64,000 bases of DNA from Chloroflexota bacterium (GTDB lineage: Bacteria > Chloroflexota > Anaerolineae > UBA2200). Location of the stretch: contig JAUWJD010000007.1 of the NCBI GenBank assembly GCA_030607875.1, positions 36,756 through 100,755 on the forward strand, in the 5' to 3' direction. The notes beneath the pieces were generated by a model. The model made no database searches, had not been told where the DNA came from, and saw nothing but the letters and a program-made list of their open reading frames with translations. Below are positions 1 through 29,352 of this stretch, one piece after another. Position numbers and translations under genes: made by a program. Numbering within the stretch: position 1 is the stretch's first letter; each line of letters begins with the position of its first letter.

Positions 1-102
1 GATCAATGAGCGATATGCCGCCTCGTCGATCATCTCACCATCCACAAACGGGGTCACCAGGGCCGGGAATACTCCTTTGAACCAGTTAGGTTTCTTATTC
101 AT
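1..102 (-). CDS. DapA-like (DHDPS/NAL family) class I aldolase, N-terminal fragment; the gene continues past the left edge
   Basis: The reverse-strand ATG at 102 is followed by MNKKPNWFKGVFPALVTPFVDGEMIDEAAYRSLI. GV(F/L)PALVTPF is the usual N-terminus of this family and mirrors residues 10-19 of the 311..1768 product. Confidence 0.5.
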   Translation of the reverse strand, partial: MNKKPNWFKGVFPALVTPFVDGEMIDEAAYRSLI

Positions 103-113
103 TTGATACTCCC

Positions 114-308
114 TCAACGCTTGTAGCAGGCCACGAAACGAGCGATGGAGCGATCGTAGGTGCGCTCCACCTCTGGCGGGAACAGGCAGCCTGGAAGTTC
201 GCCGTAGCGACGGTGGTAGGCTATGCACTCACAGCAGATCCCCTTGCGGGAGCAGGGCTCGTAGGTGCAGGTGCAGGTAACCTTGGTCTCCTCTTGTTTG
301 CATTCCAT
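114..308 (-). CDS. Small Cys-rich protein, DUF6485-like
   Basis: 64 aa: [32 protein letters not shown]...[17 protein letters not shown]. The CTYEPC..KGICCEC..YH..LP.C.FP...TYDRS pattern matches my memory of DUF6485. It is tightly packed, 2 nt from the upstream gene. Confidence 0.6.
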
Positions 309-310
309 GC

Positions 311-1768
311 TCAGTGGCCTCCGTTGCCTCTGGCAGAAGATCCAGAGACTTGAAACGCATTCTTCAGTGCCTCGCTCATCGCGTGGTGAGCATTCCCATA
401 GAGTTTGTGGCGGTCCAACGCTTGTGGGTGGACAGTGACCTGGGCCATCATCACCTCATTGTCCCAGGCCGCTTGTGGGATCAACCCTGAAGCGAGGCCA
501 TCCGCGATGGCTCGGCCCACAGCAGCTTGCGTTGGCCCATAGATCATGTTTGCCTGTCGCAGGTTCCTGAGTTCGACGACTGGAACGATGAGCGTGGCAG
601 GGCGGACTGTGAGGTTGGGCTCCAGGATGGTGGTCAGGGCCTCGCGGCCGTGGCGCGGGTAAGTGAGTTGCAGCGCATACGCTTCACCAATAGGACCGTC
701 CTTGGGGCCCGCTACCAGGTCAATCTGCACCCTCTCCACATCCTCCCCAGCGACCGCCGTGCCCAGCCGGGCAGCAATCGGCTGCAGCACTTTTGCAGGC
801 AGACCCAGTGCGGCGAATCGATCCACTAAGGGCGCTTGCGGCGCCTCGGGTTCAACTGCCCTGGGGGTGATCTTGCCCAGTTTTTCCAGCTCCAGCCGTA
901 TCTCTGCCCGCACCTCATTGATCAACACTCCGCCTTGCCTGCGCAAGGGCCGCCGAGGCCTGCCGACCTTGACGCCCATCATGTTCAGAGCTGCTTTGAC
1001 CGCCACCCCGCCCCCGTGTCGGCAGAAAATGCGTGCCAGTTTCTGCACGCTGAACTGTAGTTCGCGGGCAGTGTCCAGATCGCCCTGTTGAACGGCAGAG
1101 TACACTTGCTGCCAGACCTCGGGAAAAACCTGAGCGCTAGCCAGAATCATGCCGCTGCAGCCACCCGCCAGGGCTGGCAGAACGACTTCGTCGTGACCGA
1201 TGAGCACGTTGAAGCGCCCTTTGGTCATCTCCAGCACTTCCATCGTATAGGTCAGATTCCCGGAGGAGTCCTTCAAAGCGATGATGTTGGGGATGTCTGC
1301 CAGGTCCTCGACGACGGTGCGGGGCAGGTAGGCGTCAACTACCTGGGGGATGTTGTACAGGACGATGGGAATGTCAACCGCGCTCGCCACTTCGTAGAAG
1401 TGCTGGTAAATGCCCTTGTCAGACGGGTGCAGGAAGTACGGTGTGACGACCAGACAGGCACTGGCCCCTGCGGCTTGGGCGGCACGTGCCAGTTGCACAG
1501 CTTGCCTGGTGGAAGGGGCGCCGGCACCGGCAACGACGGGAACTCGGCCCGCCACTTCGTCCACAACGATTTCAATGACCTGTTTCTGTTCGTCTGGAGT
1601 GAGGTAGATGAATTCGCCCGTTGTTCCGCAGGGCACAACTCCATCCACGTGTGGCAAGACGTGCCGTACTAATGCACGGAGGGCGGTTTCGTCTACCGCT
1701 TCATCCCTGATGAAGGGAGTCACTAATGCTGGAAGCACGCCGCGTGGTTGGAAAGTCGGATTCTTCAC
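311..1768 (-). CDS. Fusion protein: DHDPS/NAL-family pyruvate-type class I aldolase (about aa 1-295) plus a formaldehyde-activating enzyme (Fae)-like domain (about aa 325-485)
   Basis: The N-terminal part has GTTGE, LYNIP and the Schiff-base-lysine context IALKDSSG. The C-terminal part reads [13 protein letters not shown]...[21 protein letters not shown]...[27 protein letters not shown]...VTVHP. It aligns motif-for-motif with Methylobacterium Fae (HIDLIIGPRGSP...LLAVIAPNL.CKPNTL...FGPAQHGVAMAV.DAVAEGIIP...VFIH). Confidence 0.8.
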
Positions 1769-1882
1769 CCTATTGTCTCCTTCGAGTTTTCTCGTTTCAG
1801 GCCAGTCCAGGAGGCTCAGTGGGGTCCCTCGCTAGCAGATTCGCGACGAGGGACCCCACGCACTGAACTCTGGATGGGCGCG

Positions 1883-1980
1883 TTGCTGCTTCGTGCACCA
1901 AAGGTTGCTATCCCCCCCTTGGCTCGATTATCGCGTGAAAACGACTGCCTGAGTTTAGCAGTTTGACGCAGTACCCTGTA
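1883..1980 (+). repeat. Intergenic repeat family, copy A (short form)
   Basis: TTGCTGCTTCGTGCAC...TTGGCTCGATTATCGCGTGAAAACGACTGCCTGAGTTTAGCA..TTGACGCAGTACCCTGTA. The same ends and core recur at 48568, 51770 and 62346, and in reverse at 3812, 5695, 56010 and 58186. Confidence 0.85.
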
Positions 1981-1982
1981 AT

Positions 1983-2933
1983 TCACGGCTTGGGGATGGC
2001 CAGATCCGCGGGGCCGATTCCCGAAAGCTTGGCCTCTGGGAAGTTCTCCTGTATCAACTCGTGGATGATCTGGGCATATTTGACCTTCACGCGCGCCCAA
2101 TCAGCCAGCATCTGGGTGCTTACCCAGGGCTTGTACAGAGCTCCCGGTCCCGCCGCGCACGCCGGTCCTGGCTCGATCTTGAAGTAGCACGGGGAACAGG
2201 TCCGTGCCATCTCCGAGCCATCGTAGATGCGGATATAGCCACCGAAGGAATCGGTGAGGATGATGTGCAGGTCTAGGGGGATGTCGACGGCCTGGCGAAT
2301 TGAGGAAAACTGCGGCAGCGAGAGGTCAGCCACAGGATTGACCGATGCCGCTCCCAGTGATTCCAGGAGCTTGCATCCTGCAGCATTGGCGTGGCCGGCG
2401 TAGATGGAGACCTTGAAGACGATGTCTTCTGGGATGTCCCCGTTCCGCTTCATTTCGTTGAGCAGCCACAGCAGTCCTTCGTCAAACACCAAAAACCCGC
2501 GGAAGCCGATGTCAATGGCGCGCATGATGTCCGCGATGACCTGGCGCAGTTGATCGGAGCCACGGAAGCGCAAGCCAGAGAGGCCGCCCTCGGGAGTGAC
2601 GAGCTGCCGGCCCACATCCCATGACGCACGAGGGCCAGGGGTGAGGATAACCTCGATCTTGGCATCGGCGGCCATCTGCGCAAGGTCCTTCAGCTCCGCC
2701 TTATCCAGCAAGGTTGCGCCCATGACCACCGAGATGGCGCGGTGGATAGGTACCTTGCGCTTCTGCGACTCGTCGATGAGGGCCGCCATGACCGCGGGCC
2801 TCTCAATGCCAGAGATCTCCATGCGGTACCAGGCCCCATCCGGGAAGCGCTTGGTGCTGGTCGGCAGGTCGTAGGCGTCCCGTCCGGGGATGCCAATCCT
2901 CTCCATGGCTGCGGATACTTGATCCAGTTTCAT
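1983..2933 (-). CDS. Hypothetical protein, function not recognised
   Basis: A 316-aa ORF on the same strand as, and between, the aldolase genes, with coding-like composition. I cannot place it in a family from sequence alone. Confidence 0.6.
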   Translation of the reverse strand: MKLDQVSAAMERIGIPGRDAYDLPTSTKRFPDGAWYRMEISGIERPAVMAALIDESQKRKVPIHRAISVVMGATLLDKAELKDLAQMAADAKIEVILTPGPRASWDVGRQLVTPEGGLSGLRFRGSDQLRQVIADIMRAIDIGFRGFLVFDEGLLWLLNEMKRNGDIPEDIVFKVSIYAGHANAAGCKLLESLGAASVNPVADLSLPQFSSIRQAVDIPLDLHIILTDSFGGYIRIYDGSEMARTCSPCYFKIEPGPACAAGPGALYKPWVSTQMLADWARVKVKYAQIIHELIQENFPEAKLSGIGPADLAIPKP

Positions 2934-3032
2934 TGTCCATTCCTCCTTTGGAATATGCGGTTGGGATAGGTTAGTCGATTAGTTTCATGGTTGAGCGTGA
3001 CTGTCCAACTATCTGACCACATGACGAACCGA

Positions 3033-3776
3033 CTAGGTCTTGGGTACTTGGGCCGAGTCAGCCAGGAAACGTTCCACTCCGATGTCGGTTAGCGGATGCT
3101 TGAGCGCCTTCATCAGCACGGCGTAGGGAACAGTGGCAATGTCTGCGCCAGCCAGTGCAGCCTGGGTGATGTGCAGCGGATGGCGGATGCTGGCAGCAAT
3201 GATCTGGGTCTCGATGCCATAGGTGTCAAAGATCTGGGCGATATCGGCCACGACCTCCATTCCATCGTGGCCGATGTCATCAAGCCTGCCGACAAAAGGC
3301 GACACAAAGCTGGCACAAGAGATGGCAGCGAACAAGGCCTGGTTGGGCGAGAAAACGAGTGTGGCATTGATGCGAATGCCCCATGCGGCAGCCAGGCCGC
3401 GTGCGATGTCAATGTCGGTGCCGCACTCGCCGAACCAGGGGCAGCCCTGGCACAGTTGCTCCAGATCTACATCCTCCTGGCTGACCAGCTTCATAGCGCT
3501 CAACCCGGCGGCTGTGATGGGGATCTTGACCACTACGTGCGGTGACCAAGTGGCGATCTGTTTCGCTTCGGCCACCATTCCGTCCACATTGGTGCTCACC
3601 ACCTCGGCGCTGATGCGGTCCTGTACCAGATAGCAGATTTCGCGCGTGACTTCTTTGTAGTCTGCACGACCCGAGCTCAGCATCAAACTGGGGTTGGTGG
3701 TCACTCCGCTGATGAGCCCCATTTTCACTACTTCGCGAATCTCATCAATTTTGGCTGTGTCGAGAAATAGCTCCAT
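3033..3776 (-). CDS. Transaldolase-family protein (fructose-6-phosphate aldolase / TalC-like) with a Cys-rich insertion
   Basis: MELFLDTAKIDEIRE...ISGVTTNPSL...VVVKIPIT (Schiff-base Lys context)...SPFVGRLDD. It is about 30 aa longer than typical 215-220 aa members because of EDVDLEQLCQGCPWFGECGTDIDIARGLAAAW. Confidence 0.85.
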   Translation of the reverse strand: MELFLDTAKIDEIREVVKMGLISGVTTNPSLMLSSGRADYKEVTREICYLVQDRISAEVVSTNVDGMVAEAKQIATWSPHVVVKIPITAAGLSAMKLVSQEDVDLEQLCQGCPWFGECGTDIDIARGLAAAWGIRINATLVFSPNQALFAAISCASFVSPFVGRLDDIGHDGMEVVADIAQIFDTYGIETQIIAASIRHPLHITQAALAGADIATVPYAVLMKALKHPLTDIGVERFLADSAQVPKT

Positions 3777-3811
3777 ATTCAGTTACCTCCTTGTGTAGTC
3801 GTTTGGTCAGT

Positions 3812-4026
3812 TACAGAGTACTGCGTCAACAGTTCGTGCTCTGCATGCCCCGTGGGCACCCGTGGGCACCTGCGGGCGACGGGCGACAGCCGAAGGGTCG
3901 CGCACCGACGGGATGGCCGAAGGTCTCGCCGCAGGTGATGGCTCGACGGGATAGCTATACTCAGATGGTCCTTCTCAGGTCGTAGTTCGGTGAGATACAT
4001 TTAGCAATCCGTGCACGAAGTAGTAG
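3812..4026 (-). repeat. Intergenic repeat family, copy B (long form with GC-rich cassette)
   Basis: On the + strand it reads TACAGAGTACTGCGTCAACAG...GTGCTCTGCATGCCCCGTGGGCACC..GGGCGACGGGCGACAGCCGAAGGGTC...GTGCACGAAGTAGTAG. The ends are reverse complements of copy A's ends. Confidence 0.85.
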
Positions 4027-4036
4027 TTGGCTGGTC

Positions 4037-5686
<1,650 letters not shown>

Positions 5687-10013: not shown

Positions 10014-10017
10014 GATC

Positions 10018-11013
10018 CTACCTCCGTCGGTATGGGGCACTTCCCGGCAAGCCAGTTTCCTCCAGGGCTTGCAGGACGCTGATGGCAACAAGCTGCTCGC
10101 CTGCGGGCGTCAGATGCACGCCGTCTTCAGCTAGCAGTGGCGCATGCCCGTTCCGCTCCTGCCGAAGGGATGGCGTCTCGGTCTGCGCATGATTCTTAAG
10201 GATCTCGTGCAGATCCAGTAGATGCGTTTCGTCTCTGGTTGCTGTATCTCGGATGACGCGATTGTATTCGTCATAAATGGCCCGTTGCCGCTGCTGCAGG
10301 GCTGGCCCGAGATCGGCGTGGAAAGCTTCGGTGACCGGGGTCATTGTGGCAAGGAACAATGTTGTGTTGCCATTCTGCTGGATCCTGGCCACCAGGCATT
10401 CCTGGGCCATTTTCAAGCCCTCACGGGATACGCGGGGCTGTGGCTCACCTTCCGTACTTATCTCTATCGGGCGCTCTAGCCAGCCGAACCTACGCAGCAA
10501 GCGTCGGATACGTCCGCGTAGGGTCAGGTAGAGGTGGCTATGTCGTAGCAGCGAGTCTGTGCGCTCCCACAAGTAGAGGGCTCCACACATCTGGCGTTCA
10601 CGGACTGGGTCCAGCGGCCAGTACCCCAGATTGCCGTCGTTCAACCCAAAGGCGACAATCACAGCATGCGGCTTGTACCACAGAACGTCTCGCTGCAAAC
10701 GAGCCAGGCCCTGCACCGAAGTGTGTCCACCTATGCCAACGTTGATTACCGCCACGTCCAGGTCTATGTGCCTCTGCCGGAGCAAGTCAGCTAGTACAGC
10801 CGGAAAAGACTGCTCATAGGGCAAATCCTCGCCGAAAGTGATGGAATCGCCGAAGCAGACAACGCGATATTTGTCCCTGATGTTTTCCCAGGTTATCGCG
10901 CGGGTCTCTGCACGCAGCACAGCGGGCAGTCTTGCCCTCGCGGTGCGCTGGTGATATACACGGAGGGACAAATCCGCAGTAATGAGCAATACAAGCACAA
11001 AGACGATTAGCAT
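10018..11013 (-). CDS. SGNH/GDSL-family hydrolase with N-terminal membrane anchor
   Basis: Block I FGDSITFG, block II GIGGHTS, block III FGLNDG, block V DGVHLTPAG. The start is set at MLIVFVLVLL (11013), because the longer ORF N-terminus is translation of a repeat fragment. Confidence 0.75.
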   Translation of the reverse strand: MLIVFVLVLLITADLSLRVYHQRTARARLPAVLRAETRAITWENIRDKYRVVCFGDSITFGEDLPYEQSFPAVLADLLRQRHIDLDVAVINVGIGGHTSVQGLARLQRDVLWYKPHAVIVAFGLNDGNLGYWPLDPVRERQMCGALYLWERTDSLLRHSHLYLTLRGRIRRLLRRFGWLERPIEISTEGEPQPRVSREGLKMAQECLVARIQQNGNTTLFLATMTPVTEAFHADLGPALQQRQRAIYDEYNRVIRDTATRDETHLLDLHEILKNHAQTETPSLRQERNGHAPLLAEDGVHLTPAGEQLVAISVLQALEETGLPGSAPYRRR

Positions 11014-11149
11014 ACGCTTGGAGATTATATGCTCCCTTTGCCCTTTTCGCAAAAGCCGAGGATTGAAATCCCCAGCTGACACTGAGATGTGCCCCAAGGC
11101 ACTGTCTTCCAGCCCCTGATGGGGCCTCTCGGTTTCACCGCCGCAGGGC

Positions 11150-11230
11150 CCTGCCGAAGGTCTTGGCGAAGACAAGGCCGAAGGTCTCGTTGCCGAAGGG
11201 TCCCGCACCGACGGGATAGCATCGACGGGG
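11150..11230. repeat. Orphan copy of the GC-rich repeat cassette
   Basis: GCCGAAGGTCTTGGCGAAGACAAGGCCGAAGGTCTCG..CCGAAGGGTCCCGCACCGACGGGATAGCATCGACGGGG resembles the cassette in copies B, F and G (for example 58283-58345). Confidence 0.7.
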
Positions 11231-11364
11231 AACGTCGAATTCATTCAGCGGCTTCGCACGAAGGCTGGTGACCGCTATTCGCTGGGGATACGGGAGACAA
11301 CGCACAGACACTTGCCGGGGGAGGGCTACGCTGCCATTCTGGGAAGCAAAGGACCGAGTGGTGA

Positions 11365-12258
11365 CTACACCCTCAGCTTCGGATCCAGGGAATCGCGCAA
11401 GCCGTCGCCCAGGAGGTTGAAACCCAGGACGGTCAGCATGATGGCCATGCCGGGGAAGAGCACGATGTGAGGCGCAGTGAATACTGCGTAGCGCCCCTGG
11501 CCCAGCATGGCTCCCCATTCTGGCCTGGGCGGTTGGGCACCGAGGCCCAGAAAGCTCAGGCCGGCCGCGTCGAGAATAGCGGTACCGATGCCCAGCGTGC
11601 CCTGCACAATAAGCGGAGTCAAGGTGTTGGGGAAGACATTGCGGAAGAGGATGCGTGAGGGCGGCGCCCCAATGGCTCGGGCAGCCAGGATATAGTCCTG
11701 CTCCTTCACTGACAACACCGAAGCACGCACGATGCGCGCGTAGGCGGGAATGGAGACGATGCCGATGGCGTACAGCATGTTCATCAAGCCCGGCCCCAGG
11801 ATGGTGACGATGGCCAGGGCCAGCAGCAGTGCAGGGAAGGCCAGCATGATGTCCATCAGGCGCATCACGATGTTGTCCACCCAACCGCCCGCGTACCCGG
11901 AGAGAGCGCCGATGACTGCCCCGATGACGATGGCGAATCCAACGGACACGACGCCAACTTGCAGGGAAAGTCGCGCCCCGAAGATGATGCGGCTCAGAAT
12001 ATCCCTCCCCAGGTCATCTCGACCGAGCGCGTGTTCCTGTGAGGGAGGCCTGCGCCGCATGATGAGTTCTTGCTTGATGGGATCATAGGGTGCGATAAGC
12101 GGCGCAAAGATGGCGGTGAGGAGGAACGTGCCCATGATGACCAAGCCCGTGATCGCCAATTTGTTCCTGAATAGGCGACGCATGGCGTCGCGGAACAGGC
12201 TGCTCCGTGGCCCCATTCTTTCACTGACGTCAGAGTTCGTGCGCCTAATGGAGTTCAT
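11365..12258 (-). CDS. ABC transporter permease, DppC/OppC type
   Basis: 297 aa with multiple TM segments and the EAA-like region ILAARAIGAPPSRILFRNVFPN, typical of peptide/nickel permeases. Confidence 0.9.
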   Translation of the reverse strand: MNSIRRTNSDVSERMGPRSSLFRDAMRRLFRNKLAITGLVIMGTFLLTAIFAPLIAPYDPIKQELIMRRRPPSQEHALGRDDLGRDILSRIIFGARLSLQVGVVSVGFAIVIGAVIGALSGYAGGWVDNIVMRLMDIMLAFPALLLALAIVTILGPGLMNMLYAIGIVSIPAYARIVRASVLSVKEQDYILAARAIGAPPSRILFRNVFPNTLTPLIVQGTLGIGTAILDAAGLSFLGLGAQPPRPEWGAMLGQGRYAVFTAPHIVLFPGMAIMLTVLGFNLLGDGLRDSLDPKLRV

Positions 12259-12309
12259 GGATGCGCCTCAAGTCGGTAGTGGTTGTTTTGCACGTTTGGA
12301 CTCGCAGCT

Positions 12310-13389
12310 CTACTCGTAGTGGATGCGGGGGTCAACATAGGCATAGGAGATATCCACCAGCAGGTTGACGACGACAAAGATCAGCGCGATGATCAGCACA
12401 CAGCCCTGCACGACTGGGTAGTCGCGGGACAGGATGCGGTCCACCACCAGTCGGCCCAGGCCGGGCCAGGAGAAGATGGTTTCCGTCAGGATGGCACCGC
12501 CCAGCAGCGTGCCGAGCGCTAGGCCGATGACGGTGATGATCGGCAAGAATGCATTCTTGAGCGCGTGTTTCAGCAGTATCCCCTTTTCTGTCTGCCCCTT
12601 GGCCCGCGCTGTGCGTATGTAATCCTCCCCCAGCACTTCCAGCATGCTGGAGCGGGTCATGCGCGCGATCACTGCCATGGGGATGCTGCCCAGGGCGACG
12701 GAAGGCAGGACCAGGTGGCTCAGCACATCCCGCAATGCCGTCAAGTTCCCGGTGAGAATCGCTCGCAAGACATAGAAGCCGGAGAAGAACTCGTCCGCCG
12801 TCATGATTCGCATTGAGGATGGACCCGTCGGGCCTGTGGAAAGCCCCCAGGCCTCGGCGATGGTTTGCATCTCCACGCCGATGGTCAGCCGGGCCGAAGG
12901 GGGCAGCCACTTCAACAGGAAGCCAAAAATGTAGGCCAGCATCAGACCCAGCCAAAAGATGGGCATGGATACGCCCAGCAGCGAGCCGAACATGGTGGCC
13001 AGGTCGAAGGCAGAGTTGTGCCGGTACGCCGCAAAGATGCCCGCCGGGATGCCCACCACACAGGCCACGAGCAGCGCACCCAGCGTCAGCTCCACGGTGG
13101 CAGGCAGGCGCTGGCCGATCTCTTGCAGGACGGGGCGGTTGGTCTTGACAGAGCGGCCCAGGTCCAGGCGCAGCACGCTCTCGACGTAGCGCAGGTACTG
13201 CACCGGCAGGGGCTCATCCATCCCCATTCGCTCCCTGAGCTCGGCAATCGCAGCGTCGGTGGCGTGCTCCCCCAGCATGACCTCCCATGGGTCGCCGGGG
13301 ATCAGGCGCAGCATGGCAAAAGTCACGATGGAGATACCGATCAGGACAGGGATCAGCAGCAACAGGCGGCGGATGATGTATCGAGTCAA
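12310..13389 (-). CDS. ABC transporter permease, DppB/OppB type
   Basis: MTRYIIRRLLLLIPVLIGISIVTFAMLRLIPGDP... and YIRTARAKG are canonical DppB/OppB motifs. Confidence 0.9.
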   Translation of the reverse strand: MTRYIIRRLLLLIPVLIGISIVTFAMLRLIPGDPWEVMLGEHATDAAIAELRERMGMDEPLPVQYLRYVESVLRLDLGRSVKTNRPVLQEIGQRLPATVELTLGALLVACVVGIPAGIFAAYRHNSAFDLATMFGSLLGVSMPIFWLGLMLAYIFGFLLKWLPPSARLTIGVEMQTIAEAWGLSTGPTGPSSMRIMTADEFFSGFYVLRAILTGNLTALRDVLSHLVLPSVALGSIPMAVIARMTRSSMLEVLGEDYIRTARAKGQTEKGILLKHALKNAFLPIITVIGLALGTLLGGAILTETIFSWPGLGRLVVDRILSRDYPVVQGCVLIIALIFVVVNLLVDISYAYVDPRIHYE

Positions 13390-24070: not shown

Positions 24071-25969
24071 CTATTCTTCTTCGTGTCTTTCCGTTCGCCC
24101 TCGCGTAGCATCTTGGTCGCTCACGACCAACGGCGCTATGACGGGGGTGTCTTTGTGTTGTATCGCCTCCAGGATGGTTGGCTGGCCCTTTGGGTCTGAT
24201 TCGTCGGCTTGCCTGACCCAGGAGAATTTGCGCCGCAAGGTTTTGGGGTAGTACTTTTCCAACACATCGTACTCGACGCGCTGTCCCCACTGGTGCACCA
24301 CGCGCGGATCGATGTACGACTTTAGGCTGGTGGCCAGGTTCCAATCGCGCTTGATCCGGGTCACCCGCCACCGCGCCTTTAGTTTGCCCAGCGAGAGCGC
24401 TGCCCTTCCTAGCCTCTCTTGCGCGGTTGTGATCCTGCGCTCGGCGCGTGCGATCTTCCGCTGATACGAGGCCTGTTTCCTCTCCCGCTGCTTGGGCGTC
24501 TTGCAGGCGGCAATTTTCTCGCCTGCCTCTGTGCGCAGTGCGTGGAGCGCCCCTTTGTATTCCTTAACCTGCGTGCGGTACTTCTGTACCCGCTCCTCCG
24601 CCCTGTGCTTACGCTGATTGTATCTTTCGCGTCTGACCGGCCAGTTGGCAGTGGATTTCTTGGTGTGGTTGCAAAACGTGGCCGCCTCCAGGTTGGCCAT
24701 GTTCACCGCCTGCCACTTCTCGTATTCCAGATCGCTGGACTGGATGTCTGCATCGGCCAGGCTTTCCCGCACCAACTGCGTGGCGTGATGGGTGCGGAAC
24801 ACCTTGGCCGTCAGACCGGGCAGCAGCTCCGAAAGGAAAGCATTGACGTCCTGGCTGTCAATGTCGGGAAAGATCTGCGGTTTGTCACGGGTGGGATGGC
24901 GCTTGCGATTGTTCCGGTTTCCATTGGCGGGCGGTCGAGCGTTGTCGATCAGTTCCTCCAGGTTGCGGTATACTGCCTCTGGCAGTGCCACCTTCTTGTG
25001 CCACCGTATCGAGTCCTTGCCCAGGAAGCGCAACTCGGCCACACCATCGGAGTGCAGCTTGAGATGCTCAGGACGCAGCGTGGTCGCGCCTATGGTGTCG
25101 GCTTCGTCGGGGTCCTTTTCGTCGCCCACGCGCAGGCCCAGCACGTCGATCAAGTAGCAGGCCGTGGCGATCATTCTGCGCTTGGGATCCGGGTGCGACA
25201 ACTGCACCTGGATGCGCGTGCGGACTGGCTCCAACTGGTGGTGCAGTTCAATAGCCTGGTCGAATTTCTCCGCTTCCCGGGCCTGCTTGATGGGAGCGGT
25301 GTCGCTCAACCAGACGTACTTCATCTTGTTGGACAGCTTGTCCTTCCAGCGCGCCACCCACAAGCTGCCCGGCTGCCACACAATCTCCTGCCACTCACCC
25401 GCAGGCCGTGGGGCGTCCGGGCTCAGGTTCAGCGTGACGTCGCTCTGCTGCGCGCCTTCCTTCCAGCGACCCCGAAGGGGATGCCTGCCCCGCCCCATGA
25501 AGATGCCGCTGGGCTCCACCAGGTAGGTGCCCAGTTCGGTGCGCTCACCGTTGACAATGGCGTGGCCGTATTGTTCCTTCAGCGCCTCGCGCTTTGCCTT
25601 GCGCTCCGCGGCGCGCGCCTTGCGCTCCTCCTTGGTCAGGCTGGCCTTGGCTTGACGTTCGGCCTCCACCACCTGGATGGCAGGCGTAAAATCCACCTCG
25701 TCGATGGACAGCGGTGGTTCAAGACCTAACGCAGCGCTGAAATCCTGCAAAAAGTTGCGCACAAAGACGCTGTCTTCGACGTAGGGCGTGCCCTGCTTCT
25801 TGGCCCAGGCCAGGGCCATCTCCTCCTGCTTGGGCATGAGCGGCACCGGCTCCCTCCGCACCGCGAGCACCAGGCTACGTGGCTCCGGTGGAGGCGGGAT
25901 CAGCACGCCGTTGTGGATCAGTTGGGTTAGCAGAGTCGGTTCGTTGTTGTAGTTGTTCTCGGATGCCAT
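24071..25969 (-). CDS. DNA topoisomerase IB, long eukaryote-like form
   Basis: The start is set at MASENNYNNEPTLLTQLIHNGVLIPPPPEP (25969). It aligns along its length with human TOP1 core and C-terminal motifs: VEPSGIFMGRGRHP (EPPGLFRGRGNHP), ADTIGATTLRPEH (ADTVGCCSLRVEH), FLGKDSIRW (FLGKDSIRY), LTAKVFRTHHA (LTAKVFRTYNA), FCNHTK (LCNHQR) and SLKSYIDPRV (SKLNYLDPRI, catalytic Tyr). Confidence 0.9.
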   Translation of the reverse strand: MASENNYNNEPTLLTQLIHNGVLIPPPPEPRSLVLAVRREPVPLMPKQEEMALAWAKKQGTPYVEDSVFVRNFLQDFSAALGLEPPLSIDEVDFTPAIQVVEAERQAKASLTKEERKARAAERKAKREALKEQYGHAIVNGERTELGTYLVEPSGIFMGRGRHPLRGRWKEGAQQSDVTLNLSPDAPRPAGEWQEIVWQPGSLWVARWKDKLSNKMKYVWLSDTAPIKQAREAEKFDQAIELHHQLEPVRTRIQVQLSHPDPKRRMIATACYLIDVLGLRVGDEKDPDEADTIGATTLRPEHLKLHSDGVAELRFLGKDSIRWHKKVALPEAVYRNLEELIDNARPPANGNRNNRKRHPTRDKPQIFPDIDSQDVNAFLSELLPGLTAKVFRTHHATQLVRESLADADIQSSDLEYEKWQAVNMANLEAATFCNHTKKSTANWPVRRERYNQRKHRAEERVQKYRTQVKEYKGALHALRTEAGEKIAACKTPKQRERKQASYQRKIARAERRITTAQERLGRAALSLGKLKARWRVTRIKRDWNLATSLKSYIDPRVVHQWGQRVEYDVLEKYYPKTLRRKFSWVRQADESDPKGQPTILEAIQHKDTPVIAPLVVSDQDATRGRTERHEEE

Positions 25970-25979
25970 ACAAACGCAG

Positions 25980-26007
25980 ATTATAACAGTGAATCTGTAT
26001 GCGACAA
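25980..26007 (-). promoter_or_regulatory. Putative topoisomerase IB promoter; the transcript would be nearly leaderless
   Basis: The reverse strand reads TTGTCG, 16 nt ending in TGT, TATAAT. Only 10 nt separate the -10 hexamer from the ATG at 25969. Confidence 0.45.
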
Positions 26008-26017
26008 AAACACGCGA

Positions 26018-26046
26018 TTGACATTTGCGGTTATGTTGGATATACT
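26018..26046 (+). promoter_or_regulatory. Promoter of the MNT/HEPN pair
   Basis: TTGACA, 17 nt, TATACT, then GGTGAAGAG and the ATG at 26056. Confidence 0.6.
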
Positions 26047-26055
26047 GGTGAAGAG

Positions 26056-26451
26056 ATGAAAACTTGGAGAAGCATTCTAGAGCGAAAAGTGCAAAGGCAA
26101 CAGGCGCTGGAGCGGACTCTTCCCCGCGTCGTCCAGCAATTGAAAGCCCTGGGTGCACTCAAAGTGATCCTCTTTGGTTCTTTTGCCCGGGGTGACACAG
26201 GCCGGTGGAGTGACCTGGATATTATTGCGGTCATGCCCCGTTCCCTGAGCAGCCACGAATGGACAAGAAGGATCTACGCCGAGGTTGACAGAGGCATCGC
26301 CTGTGACATCCTGGCCTACAATGAAACAGATTTGCAGGAGATGCTTTCGACAAGCCGTTTCGTGCGTCGCGCTTTGAAGGAAGGGAAGGTACTCTATGAA
26401 GCGGGAAACACTTCAAGAGGCGCAGCGTTGGCTGATCCACGCCAGGGATGA
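26056..26451 (+). CDS. Nucleotidyltransferase (MNT-type) protein, putative antitoxin partner of HEPN
   Basis: LFGSFARGDTGRWSDLDIIAV is the GSxxRG...SD.D pol-beta-type NTase motif. The start is moved to the ATG at 26056, downstream of the promoter. Confidence 0.8.
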   Translation: MKTWRSILERKVQRQQALERTLPRVVQQLKALGALKVILFGSFARGDTGRWSDLDIIAVMPRSLSSHEWTRRIYAEVDRGIACDILAYNETDLQEMLSTSRFVRRALKEGKVLYEAGNTSRGAALADPRQG

Positions 26452-27190: not shown

Positions 27191-27249
27191 CAGGGCCAGC
27201 GCTGTAGCGTCCATTGGATTCATATGTGATCCGCACAAGAGGTAGTAGT

Positions 27250-29352
27250 ATGGATCTAGGGAAGTTGGTCGCCGGACTGGCTGTGGTTATCGGAATCATG
27301 GCCGGCATTGTGCAGGTGCTGGATTATTTGCAGAAGCAGCGGGAGAAAAAGCGCGGGGCGATAACCAGCAAGGTTATCGCCCCGCCTCCACACTCGTCAG
27401 CGATGCCCAGTAACCTGCCGCCACGAAGCGAGTTCATCGGACGGGAGAGGGAGAAAGCCTTGGTGCGGGAGGCGCTGGCCTCTCGCTATCCCATAACCTG
27501 CATTGACGGCATCGGCGGCATTGGCAAGACGGCGCTGGCTCTAGAAGTGGCCAATGAGTGCTTGCAGGCCAGCAAAGGCGAAATGCCCGCTGACGGCATC
27601 CCCACGTTCGACGGCTTCATCTGGACCACGGCCAAGGACCGCGAGTTGACCCTGAATGACGTGTTGGATGCCATCGCTCGCACCCTGGACTACCTCGGCA
27701 TCGCCCAACAGCCGCTAGAGGAGAAGCAGGAGTCGGTGCGCAGGCTGCTGCAAAGCAAGCGGTGTCTGGTCATCGTGGACAACTTCGAGACAGTGAAGGA
27801 CTCCGCTGTGCGGGACTTCCTACTGCGGCTGCCGGAGCCATCCAAAGTGCTGATCACCAGCCGAGAGCAGAAGCTGCGCCAGGCCTGGGCCGTGTCGCTC
27901 AAGGGGCTGGAACCACCAGAAGCCTTGACCCTCATCCGCAGTGAAGGCCGACGACTGGGCCTAGCCTCAATGGAGAAGGCCGAAGAGCGGGTGCTGTTGC
28001 GCCTCTACAAAGCCACCGGCGGGGCTCCACTGGCCATCAAGTGGGCTGTGGGGCAAATCAAACAGAAGGGCCAAACACTGGACAGGGTGCTAGCGGCCCT
28101 GTACGGGGCCAAGGGCGACATCTTCGAGGAAGTTTTCGCTCGCTCTTGGTCGCTGCTGACCGACGACGCGCGGCGCATCCTGATGGTCATGCCCATCTTC
28201 GTCGCTTCGGCGTCTCGGGATGCCATAGAAGCCGCTAGTGACGTACACCACTACGGCTTGGACGAGGGGCTGGGGCAGTTAGTGGAGATGTGGCTGGTGG
28301 AAGCTACCGATGAACTGGACGTGGCCAAGCGACGGTATAGCATTCACCCGCTGACGAGGGCGTATGCTGGGGCCAAGTTGAGGGAGAATGCGGACTGGGA
28401 GAGAGAAGCAAGACTGCGAGCTGCTGATTACTTCGTTCATCTCACGGAGAGGCATGGCTGGCGGTGGGATACACAAGGGATTACCATGTTCGATGTGCAA
28501 CGACTCGAACCCGAGCGAGAGAATGTGCTCGCCATAATGGACTGGTGTTACGAGACAGGCGAATGGCAAATCTTACTCTCCCTGGCCTTGGGAATGAGCG
28601 GGTTCTTAGGTTTGTGTGGCTATTGGCAAGAACGTCTGATCTATGGACAGCGAGGTGCCGAGGCGGCGGAGCACATAGGAGACGATAGGTCGTTGGCTTG
28701 GCTAAGCATGTTGATGGCCTGGGTGTACCTTAACCGCGGTAGTCACGGACAGGCGAGGTCGCTGATGAAAGAGAGCCAGGTGATCTTCGAGAGAATTGGA
28801 GCTTGGGAAGGCACTTGCGTGGCGCTCAGGTATTTGGGGAGGATCGCGCGTGAGACAGGCGCATTTGAGGAAGCAAAACAACTAGGTGAAAAAGCGCTCG
28901 AGATTGCTCGAGTGCAAAATCATAGGAATTATGCGAGCGACCTTTATCGGGATTTCGGAACACTTGCATTGGAGCAAGGACAATATGCAGAGGCCCAGCA
29001 GTGGTGCCAAAAGGCACTCGACGAAATAGAAAAACCTGGAAACGAAGAGAGATTGGGCAATATCCTCATTGGCCTTGCTAGCGCAAAGCTCATGCGGGGC
29101 GAGATCAATGACGCAGGGCGGCTGTTCGAAACGGCATTGGAACTCGTTCAGATGTTTGGTAGACAAGACAATATCGCTCATGCTAAGCACGGTTTGGCAA
29201 AAGTCAACAGCGAAAAGGGCGATCTTGGAGAAGCGCTGAAACTGGCGCGAGAGGCTCTGGGAACCTACGTGCGGCTGGAGATGCGGCAAGAGGCTAATGA
29301 GACGAAGCTGCTGGTGAGGAGGCTAGAGAAGAAGCTGTCGGTGGATAGATAA
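27250..29352 (+). CDS. STAND NTPase: N-terminal TM helix + NB-ARC + C-terminal TPR repeats (NLR-like)
   Basis: LVAGLAVVIGIMAGIVQVL (TM), GIGGIGKTALA (Walker A), CLVIVDNFE (Walker B), VLITSR, GGAPLAI and IHPLTR (MHD position), then TPR-like repeats to the C-terminus. The ATG at 27250 has GAGG 8 nt upstream. The ORF could also start at 27214. Confidence 0.85.
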   Translation: MDLGKLVAGLAVVIGIMAGIVQVLDYLQKQREKKRGAITSKVIAPPPHSSAMPSNLPPRSEFIGREREKALVREALASRYPITCIDGIGGIGKTALALEVANECLQASKGEMPADGIPTFDGFIWTTAKDRELTLNDVLDAIARTLDYLGIAQQPLEEKQESVRRLLQSKRCLVIVDNFETVKDSAVRDFLLRLPEPSKVLITSREQKLRQAWAVSLKGLEPPEALTLIRSEGRRLGLASMEKAEERVLLRLYKATGGAPLAIKWAVGQIKQKGQTLDRVLAALYGAKGDIFEEVFARSWSLLTDDARRILMVMPIFVASASRDAIEAASDVHHYGLDEGLGQLVEMWLVEATDELDVAKRRYSIHPLTRAYAGAKLRENADWEREARLRAADYFVHLTERHGWRWDTQGITMFDVQRLEPERENVLAIMDWCYETGEWQILLSLALGMSGFLGLCGYWQERLIYGQRGAEAAEHIGDDRSLAWLSMLMAWVYLNRGSHGQARSLMKESQVIFERIGAWEGTCVALRYLGRIARETGAFEEAKQLGEKALEIARVQNHRNYASDLYRDFGTLALEQGQYAEAQQWCQKALDEIEKPGNEERLGNILIGLASAKLMRGEINDAGRLFETALELVQMFGRQDNIAHAKHGLAKVNSEKGDLGEALKLAREALGTYVRLEMRQEANETKLLVRRLEKKLSVDR

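Follow-up and report, generated by a model that had tools for sequence, protein, structure and literature searches.

Formaldehyde-activating enzyme (Fae) accelerates the condensation of formaldehyde with tetrahydromethanopterin (H4MPT) (PMC8879981). In the archaeal Fae-Hps proteins (NF009833), a Fae domain is fused to a formaldehyde-handling aldolase, an arrangement presumed to capture the toxic aldehyde, or to deliver it, at its source. Here we describe another such fusion in a stretch of 64,000 nucleotides (the window) from a Chloroflexota bacterium of the Anaerolineae (assembly GCA_030607875.1, contig JAUWJD010000007.1, positions 36,756 to 100,755), in which a gene that we call F1 joins an aldolase of the dihydrodipicolinate synthase (DHDPS) type to a Fae-like domain. 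We tentatively read F1 as one part of a conserved three-part module, formed by a partner TIM barrel and two paralogous aldolase-Fae proteins, F1 and F2, which would carry out a formaldehyde-pterin-coupled aldol step. We consider this reading quite possible, if a little short of probable.

Fae-Hps and the window protein differ in several respects. The Hps aldolase is of the orotidine-monophosphate-decarboxylase type and uses ribulose-5-phosphate, whereas F1 has a Schiff-base barrel of the DHDPS/N-acetylneuraminate lyase (NAL) superfamily, which uses a 2-oxo acid. Fae precedes Hps in the archaeal protein, while the order is reversed in F1, where Fae is C-terminal. The Fae part of F1 scores 110 bits on the Fae-Hps model against a cut-off of 274, covering model positions 3-142 of 392, and the Anaerolineae enzyme is split into two complementary paralogues. 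The aldolase-Fae fusion as a kind is already known; what appears to be new here, judged from the sequences, is the paralogue split and the type of aldolase. The searchable literature held no report of a DHDPS-Fae fusion, of an F1/F2 pair, of the complementary residue pattern or of the partner families, in agreement with an earlier reading of the window from its letters alone (the sequence-only reading), whose author knew of no described DHDPS-Fae fusion. All genes of the fusion locus lie on the minus strand, and coordinates are those of the window. The features of the module are:

311..1768, minus strand: F1, a single uninterrupted open reading frame of 485 aa with a GTG start, encoding an aldolase and a truncated Fae-like domain
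869..1747, minus strand: aldolase domain of F1, aa 8-300, placed by alignment to E. coli DapA
770..868, minus strand: interdomain linker of F1, about aa 301-333, between the C-terminal helices of the DHDPS part (LEKLGKI) and the first position matched to Fae
341..769, minus strand: Fae-like domain of F1, aa 334-476, placed by family models, alignment and predicted structure
1..102, minus strand: start of F2, the second DHDPS-Fae paralogue, first 34 codons, cut by the window edge
1983..2933, minus strand: 316-aa partner protein, a predicted TIM barrel and probable distant member of the U32 superfamily

The two domains that the sequence-only reading had proposed for 311..1768 are both strongly matched, by PF00701 (DHDPS, aa 8-276, E 5.9e-74) and PF08714 (Fae, aa 336-473, E 4.5e-37, 127.9 bits against a cut-off of 27), and the linker agrees with the junction estimated there at 790-880. 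The C-terminal domain also passes the cut-off of the NCBIfam model TIGR03126 for Fae (127.3 against 118.05 bits), as that reading had asked of it. Its statement that the domain follows Fae motif for motif goes too far, as Glu11, His22 and the last ~20 residues are missing (Fae positions are numbered as in the M. extorquens enzyme). The glutamine it had aligned by eye with His22 is indeed there, as Gln348 (codon 725..727, minus strand) within VQIDL. On the aldolase side, F1 has each of the motifs GTTGE, YNIP and ALKDSSG; the Schiff-base residue Lys166 (codon 1271..1273, minus strand) corresponds to Lys161 of E. coli DapA by alignment and codon check, and Thr49/Thr50 and Tyr138 correspond to its Thr44/45 and Tyr133. 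Val143 stands in place of DapA Arg138 and Phe112 in place of Tyr107. An AlphaFold2 model of the whole of F1 has a poor N-terminus, because the available homologues are fragments, and is uninformative on domain packing. Foldseek matches the model to DHDPS structures. Its Fae part is confident, and superposition of this part on 1Y5Y, the M. extorquens Fae, gives a root-mean-square deviation of 2.6 Å and a TM-score, normalised to the target, of 0.81-0.82.

An exact-sequence look-up of the window protein gave no match, but relatives are numerous. Among the 201 proteins retrieved with the linker and Fae part as query, the majority of the top matches, at 53-74% identity, carry both PF00701 and PF08714 and come from metagenome-assembled genomes of Anaerolineae/Chloroflexota; public databases name such proteins "dihydrodipicolinate synthase family protein", "formaldehyde-activating enzyme" or "hypothetical protein". 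When one genome per species was scanned, at least 198 species genomes proved to encode a relative, and a metagenome scan found 510 stretches with a relative. Counts for Anaerolineae loci given below refer to the best 80 of the 198 stretches, almost all of them from Anaerolineae/Chloroflexota, and those for archaeal-type loci to the best 80 of the 510 metagenome stretches. The 80 genome loci yielded 72 full-length F1 orthologues, each as a single open reading frame. Residue statistics rest on 203 full-length sequences, namely these 72 F1, 57 F2 and 74 of a single-copy form.

F2 is the gene downstream of F1. The sequence-only reading had seen a second DapA-like gene at 1..102; its N-terminus is DapA-like, but the gene is actually the start of a DHDPS-Fae protein. 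The product of these 34 codons is 82-85% identical to the N-terminus of F2 in the two closest relatives (L001 and L002), and in related loci the gene in this place encodes a full DHDPS plus Fae protein (in one F2, E 4.6e-76 for DHDPS and 6.9e-33 for Fae). F2 is 38-45% identical to F1 and scores 131-144 bits over the whole of the 160-position NCBIfam Fae model, of which F1 covers positions 2-142. F1 and F2 are both full-length in 53 loci, mostly less than 500 bp apart.

The single-copy form came to light next to a homologue of the partner. A protein 62% identical to the 316-aa partner, from a Candidatus Bathyarchaeia source, has directly downstream one 511-aa DHDPS-Fae gene, and the Fae domain of this gene has Glu11, His22, Asp24, the EPNL loop, the RQA..YGPAQ segment with Gln88 and the C-terminal HPF arm, which in Fae becomes ordered on cofactor binding. 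The best 80 metagenome loci have one fusion each, with no second copy within 8 kb. A taxon label is attached to the first contig only, and we call the group Bathyarchaeia-like on account of the 63-100% identity between this contig's fusion and the others. In the single-copy form Glu11, His22 and Gln88 are each found in 74 of the 74 sequences; Asp24, Gly85-Pro86, the PNL loop and the arm with HPF are kept in all or nearly all of them, and on the aldolase side Thr44, Tyr107, Tyr133 and Lys161 (E. coli DapA numbering) are present in 74/74. Its Fae domain and the M. extorquens enzyme share 43% identity, against ~31% for F1 and F2. From its sequence, with a complete aldolase set and a complete Fae site, the single-copy archaeal-type fusion is the ancestral-looking form.

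In Anaerolineae, the features of that site are divided between the two paralogues, as follows:

Glu11: Thr or Ser in F1 (Thr337 in the window); Glu in 57/57 F2
His22: Gln in 58, Gly in 9 and other residues in 5 of 72 F1; His in 57/57 F2
Residues 58-62 of the 57-64 loop: kept in F1, with Pro58 and Leu60 in 72/72; deleted in 57/57 F2
Gly85-Pro86: kept in 72/72 F1; replaced in F2
Gln88: Gln in 72/72 F1; Ala or Val in F2
C-terminal arm: absent in ~70 of 72 F1; invariant in F2 (...ARHPFRYAP)

The window F1 follows this pattern. It keeps Asp350 (Asp24), the loop as EPNLTVRP and RQA..YGPTQ with the equivalent of Gln88, and its Fae domain is without the HPF arm; F2 keeps Glu11, His22, Asp24 and the arm. 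Compared locus by locus, the F1 and F2 residues at position 22 are Gln and His in 45 cases, Gly and His in 7 and His and His in 1, and those at position 88 are Gln and Ala in 39 and Gln and Val in 12. A closed 2.5-Mb genome labelled as a Thermoplasmata archaeon (L081, CP070726.1) has an F1/F2 pair at 10015..12346. Although its N-terminus is masked by a stretch of N, the F1 of this pair can be seen to retain His22 as well as Gln88; it is a possible intermediate stage of the split. The pattern is that of a gene duplication in Anaerolineae after which the two Fae domains lost complementary halves of one site. Because Glu11, His22 and the C-terminal arm are missing, it is unlikely that the window F1 can act as a Fae by itself, and F2, which carries exactly the features missing from F1, looks like an obligatory partner.

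The M. extorquens enzyme (1Y5Y/1Y60) shares the fold, and F1 keeps its Asp24, 57-64 loop and Gln88. It is, however, a stand-alone protein with Glu11, His22 and arm, while F1 is fused to an aldolase and is without these, and it is a homopentamer with five equal sites, which F1 probably is not. Methylene-H4MPT is reportedly bound in a cleft between two adjacent Fae subunits, where His22 is said to be the proposed acid catalyst and Gln88 is said to rearrange upon binding. Given a site between adjacent subunits, we propose that F1 and F2 probably form a hetero-oligomer that rebuilds one composite Fae site, with residues 11, 22 and 24 and the arm contributed by one subunit and the 57-64 loop and the 78-88 helix by its neighbor. 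If a homo-oligomer is duplicated and its interface site is partitioned to give an obligate heteromer, a division of this kind is to be expected.

The third part of the module is the 316-aa protein. The sequence-only reading had listed it as unassigned, and it is right that the protein has no Pfam or NCBIfam match at default thresholds; it is nonetheless no bystander, being the most consistently linked partner of the fusion. It is extremely conserved, with 1955 clusters at 77-98% identity, every one of which is called hypothetical in its annotation, and an exhaustive HMMER search extended the family to 847 representative clusters at down to ~30% identity. AlphaFold2 predicts a (beta/alpha)8 barrel (pLDDT 75.7, pTM 0.80) resembling generic TIM barrels such as class II aldolases and methylisocitrate lyases, at TM-scores of ~0.45-0.55 that are too weak for a reaction to be assigned from the model, and searches of PDB sequences with the protein and with its family profile gave no significant match. 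Its probable relationship to Peptidase_U32 (PF01136) is read from its homologues. The window protein itself stays below the cut-off (E 0.022, 14.5 bits against 22.4), 24 of 30 diverse homologues weakly match the family (best E 2.4e-8), and a profile search found relatives at 38-44% identity under the name "U32 family peptidase", many with a precomputed PF01136 match. What connects the partner with the U32 superfamily (RlhA, TrhP, UbiU/UbiV) is its predicted TIM barrel, together with these U32-named relatives. Characterized U32 hydroxylases bind iron-sulfur clusters through conserved cysteines. Characterized members of the superfamily have such a Cys motif and a tRNA, rRNA or quinone gene context, whereas an alignment of 30 sequences of the 316-aa family has no conserved Cys in invariant or near-invariant columns, and the family's context is one of DHDPS-family and sugar-acid genes. 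We considered the 316-aa protein as an orthologue of the Bacillus tRNA hydroxylase of YrrN/TrhP type and rejected this, because its Firmicutes relatives lie in sugar-acid/LarA clusters and not in yrrMNO.

A different protein can take the place of the U32-like barrel. Among the 66 archaeal-type loci with enough upstream DNA, the U32-like protein is present in 21 and a ~432-aa protein in 44, with both in none and neither in 1. Since the two types are mutually exclusive, they are likely to be alternative providers of one function. The ~432-aa protein belongs to no Pfam family and is ~70% identical to a 422-aa protein whose gene lies upstream of F1 in other Anaerolineae; between the 316-aa family on one side and the 422-aa family with a related 415-aa family on the other there is a remote profile similarity (hhalign 72%, E 3.5e-5, with a shared FK.S..G..NP motif). 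One of three partner types is present in 41 of the 62 Anaerolineae loci with enough upstream sequence, and the adjacency of partner and fusion persists through changes of orientation and lineage. The similar length of LarA suggested that the 415-432-aa protein might be LarA-like, but it has no Lar_N match even at E <= 1. Open reading frames on the plus strand upstream of the 415-aa gene were likewise rejected as operon members, as they overlap longer frames on the opposite strand.

Homologues of the U32-like protein outside the fusion loci give some indication of its role. In Parageobacillus (L170) the homologue directly adjoins a stand-alone DHDPS-family gene; in Halobacillus (L082) the sugar-acid cluster around the homologue includes a DHDPS-family gene five genes downstream of it, and in Ammoniphilus (L088), where the cluster is similar, the 17 kb that were read contain no gene of this family. 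The Halobacillus and Ammoniphilus clusters include TRAP transporters, dehydratases of ILVD/EDD and GarD type, FAH-family enzymes, an aldehyde dehydrogenase and LarA/LarBCE, and on one further contig the homologue is beside an SGL lactonase. Gene neighborhoods of this kind suggest that the partner probably makes or consumes the 2-oxo or hydroxy acid of the DHDPS-family enzyme. As a separate observation, the homologues in these three genera adjoin either a LarA-like gene (Lar_N, 421-424 aa) or larE-larB-larC together with a DHDPS-family gene, which hints at a link between the U32-like barrel family and racemases or epimerases with the nickel-pincer cofactor. The results as a whole offer an initial lead to the function of two unannotated families, the U32-like barrel of 312-316 aa and the 415-432-aa protein.

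How the parts might work together can be outlined as follows. The aldolase domain would cleave or form a 4-hydroxy-2-oxo acid, most simply 4-hydroxy-2-oxobutanoate (HOB) in equilibrium with pyruvate and formaldehyde, since formaldehyde as the aldehyde of a pyruvate aldolase makes HOB the substrate. The Fae site would pass formaldehyde to or from a tetrahydropterin one-carbon carrier, by analogy with the archaeal Fae-Hps. This carrier would be H4MPT in the archaea; Bathyarchaeia use H4MPT. The partner barrel would supply or remove the 2-oxo-acid substrate, a role proposed because its relatives sit in sugar-acid clusters beside DHDPS-family genes. An aldol-formaldehyde coupling had already been suggested by the sequence-only reading. 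It is still the best available hypothesis and is strengthened by the intact single-copy form, with the amendment that the window protein is unlikely to suffice alone.

Several points weigh against this proposal. At least three loci (L008, L024 and L040) have no F2 within ~10 kb downstream, and in 21 of the 62 Anaerolineae loci a partner gene is missing from the vicinity. An aldehyde larger than formaldehyde is conceivable, as the Gly186-His187-Asp188-Glu189 motif of the aldolase, in which the three residues after Gly186 are invariant in F1, F2 and the single-copy form, as is Gln137, resembles the GxDE motif of sialic-acid lyases. The composite site would require His22 and Gln88 to come from different subunits; were they on one chain, neither of the Anaerolineae Fae domains would be active as Fae. 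Two types of subunit cannot alternate around a ring of five, so the heteromer would need a non-classical assembly. Finally, no H4MPT genes were seen in the annotated parts of the window, and literature searches for Fae or H4MPT in Anaerolineae/Chloroflexi found nothing relevant, with no paper placing H4MPT in Anaerolineae.

The first alternative is that the aldolases act on larger 2-keto-3-deoxy sugar acids, in the manner of KDG-, KdgD- or sialate-lyase-like enzymes, and that the Fae-derived domain has taken on a new, formaldehyde-free role, such as binding another ligand or another aldehyde or serving as an oligomerization or regulatory module. We judge this main rival less likely than not, and several observations speak for it. 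The U32-like homologues of the partner lie in sugar-acid catabolic clusters with DHDPS-family genes, one of them beside the SGL lactonase; GxDE is the sugar-binding motif of N-acetylneuraminate lyases, and the invariant Gly-His-Asp-Glu resembles it; F2 scores 176-186 bits on the NanA model; and the acid catalyst of Fae is lost in F1. On the other hand, the losses in F1 and F2 are complementary and not random, and the single-copy form, at 43% identity to the M. extorquens enzyme, has the canonical Fae residues in all or nearly all of its 74 sequences. Because this form keeps every canonical residue, we argue that chemistry of the Fae type has been retained.

A second alternative, a variant of the proposal, keeps the formaldehyde and assumes the biosynthetic direction. 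PanB (ketopantoate hydroxymethyltransferase) uses methylene-tetrahydrofolate as donor of a hydroxymethyl group to a 2-oxo acid. The module could be its class I analogue, the Fae site freeing formaldehyde from methylene-tetrahydropterin and the aldolase adding it to pyruvate or another 2-oxo acid to give a 4-hydroxy-2-oxo acid for biosynthesis. PanB itself is an established precedent, the fusion and tight operon would suit channeling of a toxic intermediate, and the genes are distributed like housekeeping genes, being found throughout the class Anaerolineae and beside CTP synthase or hrcA-grpE-dnaK. However, no biosynthetic genes are consistently linked, the relatives of the partner look catabolic and the direction of a reaction cannot be read from sequence. 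We regard this alternative as rather improbable.

It is far less probable still that F1 is the organism's DapA with an added regulatory domain. The DHDPS domain of F1 does pass the cut-off of TIGR00674, the dapA model (232.4 against 206.15 bits; F2 scores 202-214), and DapA enzymes are its best matches among PDB sequences (~1e-51). F1 shares with DapA the PF00701 fold, the GTTGE threonines, Tyr133 and the Schiff-base Lys161, and Thr44/45, Tyr133 and Lys161 are invariant in F1, F2 and the single-copy form. But DapA is without the C-terminal extension of ~185 aa that bears the Fae-like domain, and F1 differs from it further in the absent Arg138, in Phe at position 107 and in the invariant Gln137 and His-Asp-Glu motif. 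In DapA, Arg138 binds the carboxylate of aspartate semialdehyde. Position 138 is Val or Thr in F1 and Cys or Thr in F2; overall it is Val, Thr, Cys or Ala, and Arg in 0 of the 203 sequences. Since Arg138 is never present, neither F1 nor F2 is a true DapA, and the TIGR00674 score of F1 is misleading. DapA Tyr107 is the member of the catalytic triad that is contributed across the tight dimer. This position is Phe in 62 of 72 F1 (the window F1 among them), Tyr in 43 of 57 F2 and Tyr in 74 of 74 single-copy sequences. There are also two paralogues with no dapB adjacent, and a further DHDPS gene, more distantly related, is present in two loci (L021 and L046).

The same positions show that the aldolase of F2 is like the single-copy form (Tyr107, Lys109, Cys138, Gly140, Asn208) and that of F1 is derived (Phe107, His109, Val138, Val139, Asp140, Gln208). 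A covariation of Tyr and Phe at position 107 between F1 and F2 was considered and dropped as evidence, the pairs being mixed (Phe/Tyr in 34, Phe/Phe in 12 and Tyr/Tyr in 7). Lastly, an assembly or frameshift artefact joining two genes can be excluded, as the same unbroken architecture recurs at 38-100% identity in independent assemblies of 72 F1, 57 F2 and 74 single-copy sequences, closed or long contigs included.

To return to the proposed coupling of formaldehyde and pterin, HOB has been described as a non-native metabolite that is reached only through promiscuous aldolases, for example as a side reaction of the class II enzyme RhmA (PMC8879981). The HOB aldolases of the synthetic homoserine cycle carry out the same reaction as is proposed for F1/F2, namely pyruvate plus formaldehyde to or from HOB; the difference is that RhmA does so as a class II side activity, while in F1/F2 the reaction would be the dedicated task of a natural class I enzyme with coupling to a one-carbon carrier. 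In the widest form of the proposal, Bathyarchaeia-type archaea and Anaerolineae would share a natural dedicated route that joins pterin-bound one-carbon units, as formaldehyde, to pyruvate or splits a C4 2-oxo acid into them, with a hitherto unrecognized TIM-barrel partner and, in Anaerolineae, an obligate F1/F2 heteromer. We hold this wider claim to be doubtful. If it is true, this would be the first natural enzyme dedicated to the interconversion of pyruvate plus formaldehyde and HOB, coupled to a one-carbon carrier; for this reaction, present designs for synthetic methylotrophy depend entirely on promiscuous aldolases. In anoxic sediments and digesters, Anaerolineae and Bathyarchaeia rank with the most abundant heterotrophs, and a class-wide uncharacterized module is a gap in the map of carbon flow. 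Whatever the function, the F1/F2 pair is a clean candidate for subfunctionalization in which a duplicated homo-oligomer has partitioned one interface active site.

The remaining features near the fusion are:

114..308, minus strand: Cys-rich DUF6485 protein of 64 aa (PF20095, E 1e-7)
1822..1856, minus strand: perfect hairpin, a 35-nt match with arms of 10 bp plus one G/C pair on each side, making 11 bp
3033..3776, minus strand: transaldolase/fructose-6-phosphate aldolase (FSA)-type gene (TIGR00875, 255.8 bits against a cut-off of 245.95)

The DUF6485-like neighbor named by the sequence-only reading is borne out by its family match. It lies between F1 and F2 in 18 of the 80 Anaerolineae loci and in 0 of the 80 archaeal-type loci, and it was found nowhere else. 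Eight invariant Cys and one invariant His form the pattern E-C-x8-C-x-C-x4-C-x5-C-C-x-C-x3-H-x8-C, and the protein is possibly a metal- or cluster-binding accessory subunit. Its start is 2 nt past the stop of F1, that of F2 is 11 nt past the stop of DUF6485, and each start is preceded by a Shine-Dalgarno-like GGAGG/GGGAG; packing as tight as this is what is expected of co-produced proteins.

The spacer between the partner gene and F1 is 214 nt long in the window, against only ~25-40 nt in the closest relatives. It contains the hairpin, which is unique in the window, and its folding z-score is -3.05. Rfam and promoter/terminator scans of window positions 1..4200 gave nothing above chance.

While linkage of the fusion to F2 and to the partner is recurrent, linkage to the FSA-type gene is local. 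That this gene is a transaldolase/F6P-aldolase homologue, as first read, is confirmed by TIGR00875, but it does not form part of the system. It is near F1 in 9/80 Anaerolineae loci and 0/80 archaeal-type loci, and beside the partner only in the closest relatives, so we place it outside the conserved module. The homologue has an insertion of ~25 aa with three Cys at about aa 105-130, VDLEQLCQGCPWFGECGTDIDIARG, which splits the TIGR00875 match in two. Genes for CTP synthase and for subunits of an indolepyruvate-type oxidoreductase (Ior) follow farther on in the window, again as synteny of the closest relatives only. In other loci the neighbors of F1 are variable and include NUDIX, PEBP, hrcA-grpE, aminotransferase, MttB and glycosyltransferase genes. 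The MttB-superfamily methyltransferase gene (4549..5997 of L021, labelled Thermodesulfobacteriota; E 2.7e-90) lies directly upstream of F1 and is the lone neighbor related to one-carbon metabolism.

Two genes elsewhere in the window may be mentioned. At 24071..26158 on the minus strand, a 695-aa protein has all three domains of a topoisomerase IB of eukaryotic type (Topoisom_I_N, E 1e-49; Topoisom_I, E 4.5e-57; Topo_C_assoc, E 2e-12). The window is Anaerolineae-like apart from this protein, and the 24-26 kb bin has the strongest AT skew of the window (-0.23). At 27214..29352 on the plus strand lies a gene for a 712-aa protein with NB-ARC and TPR domains, of STAND type.

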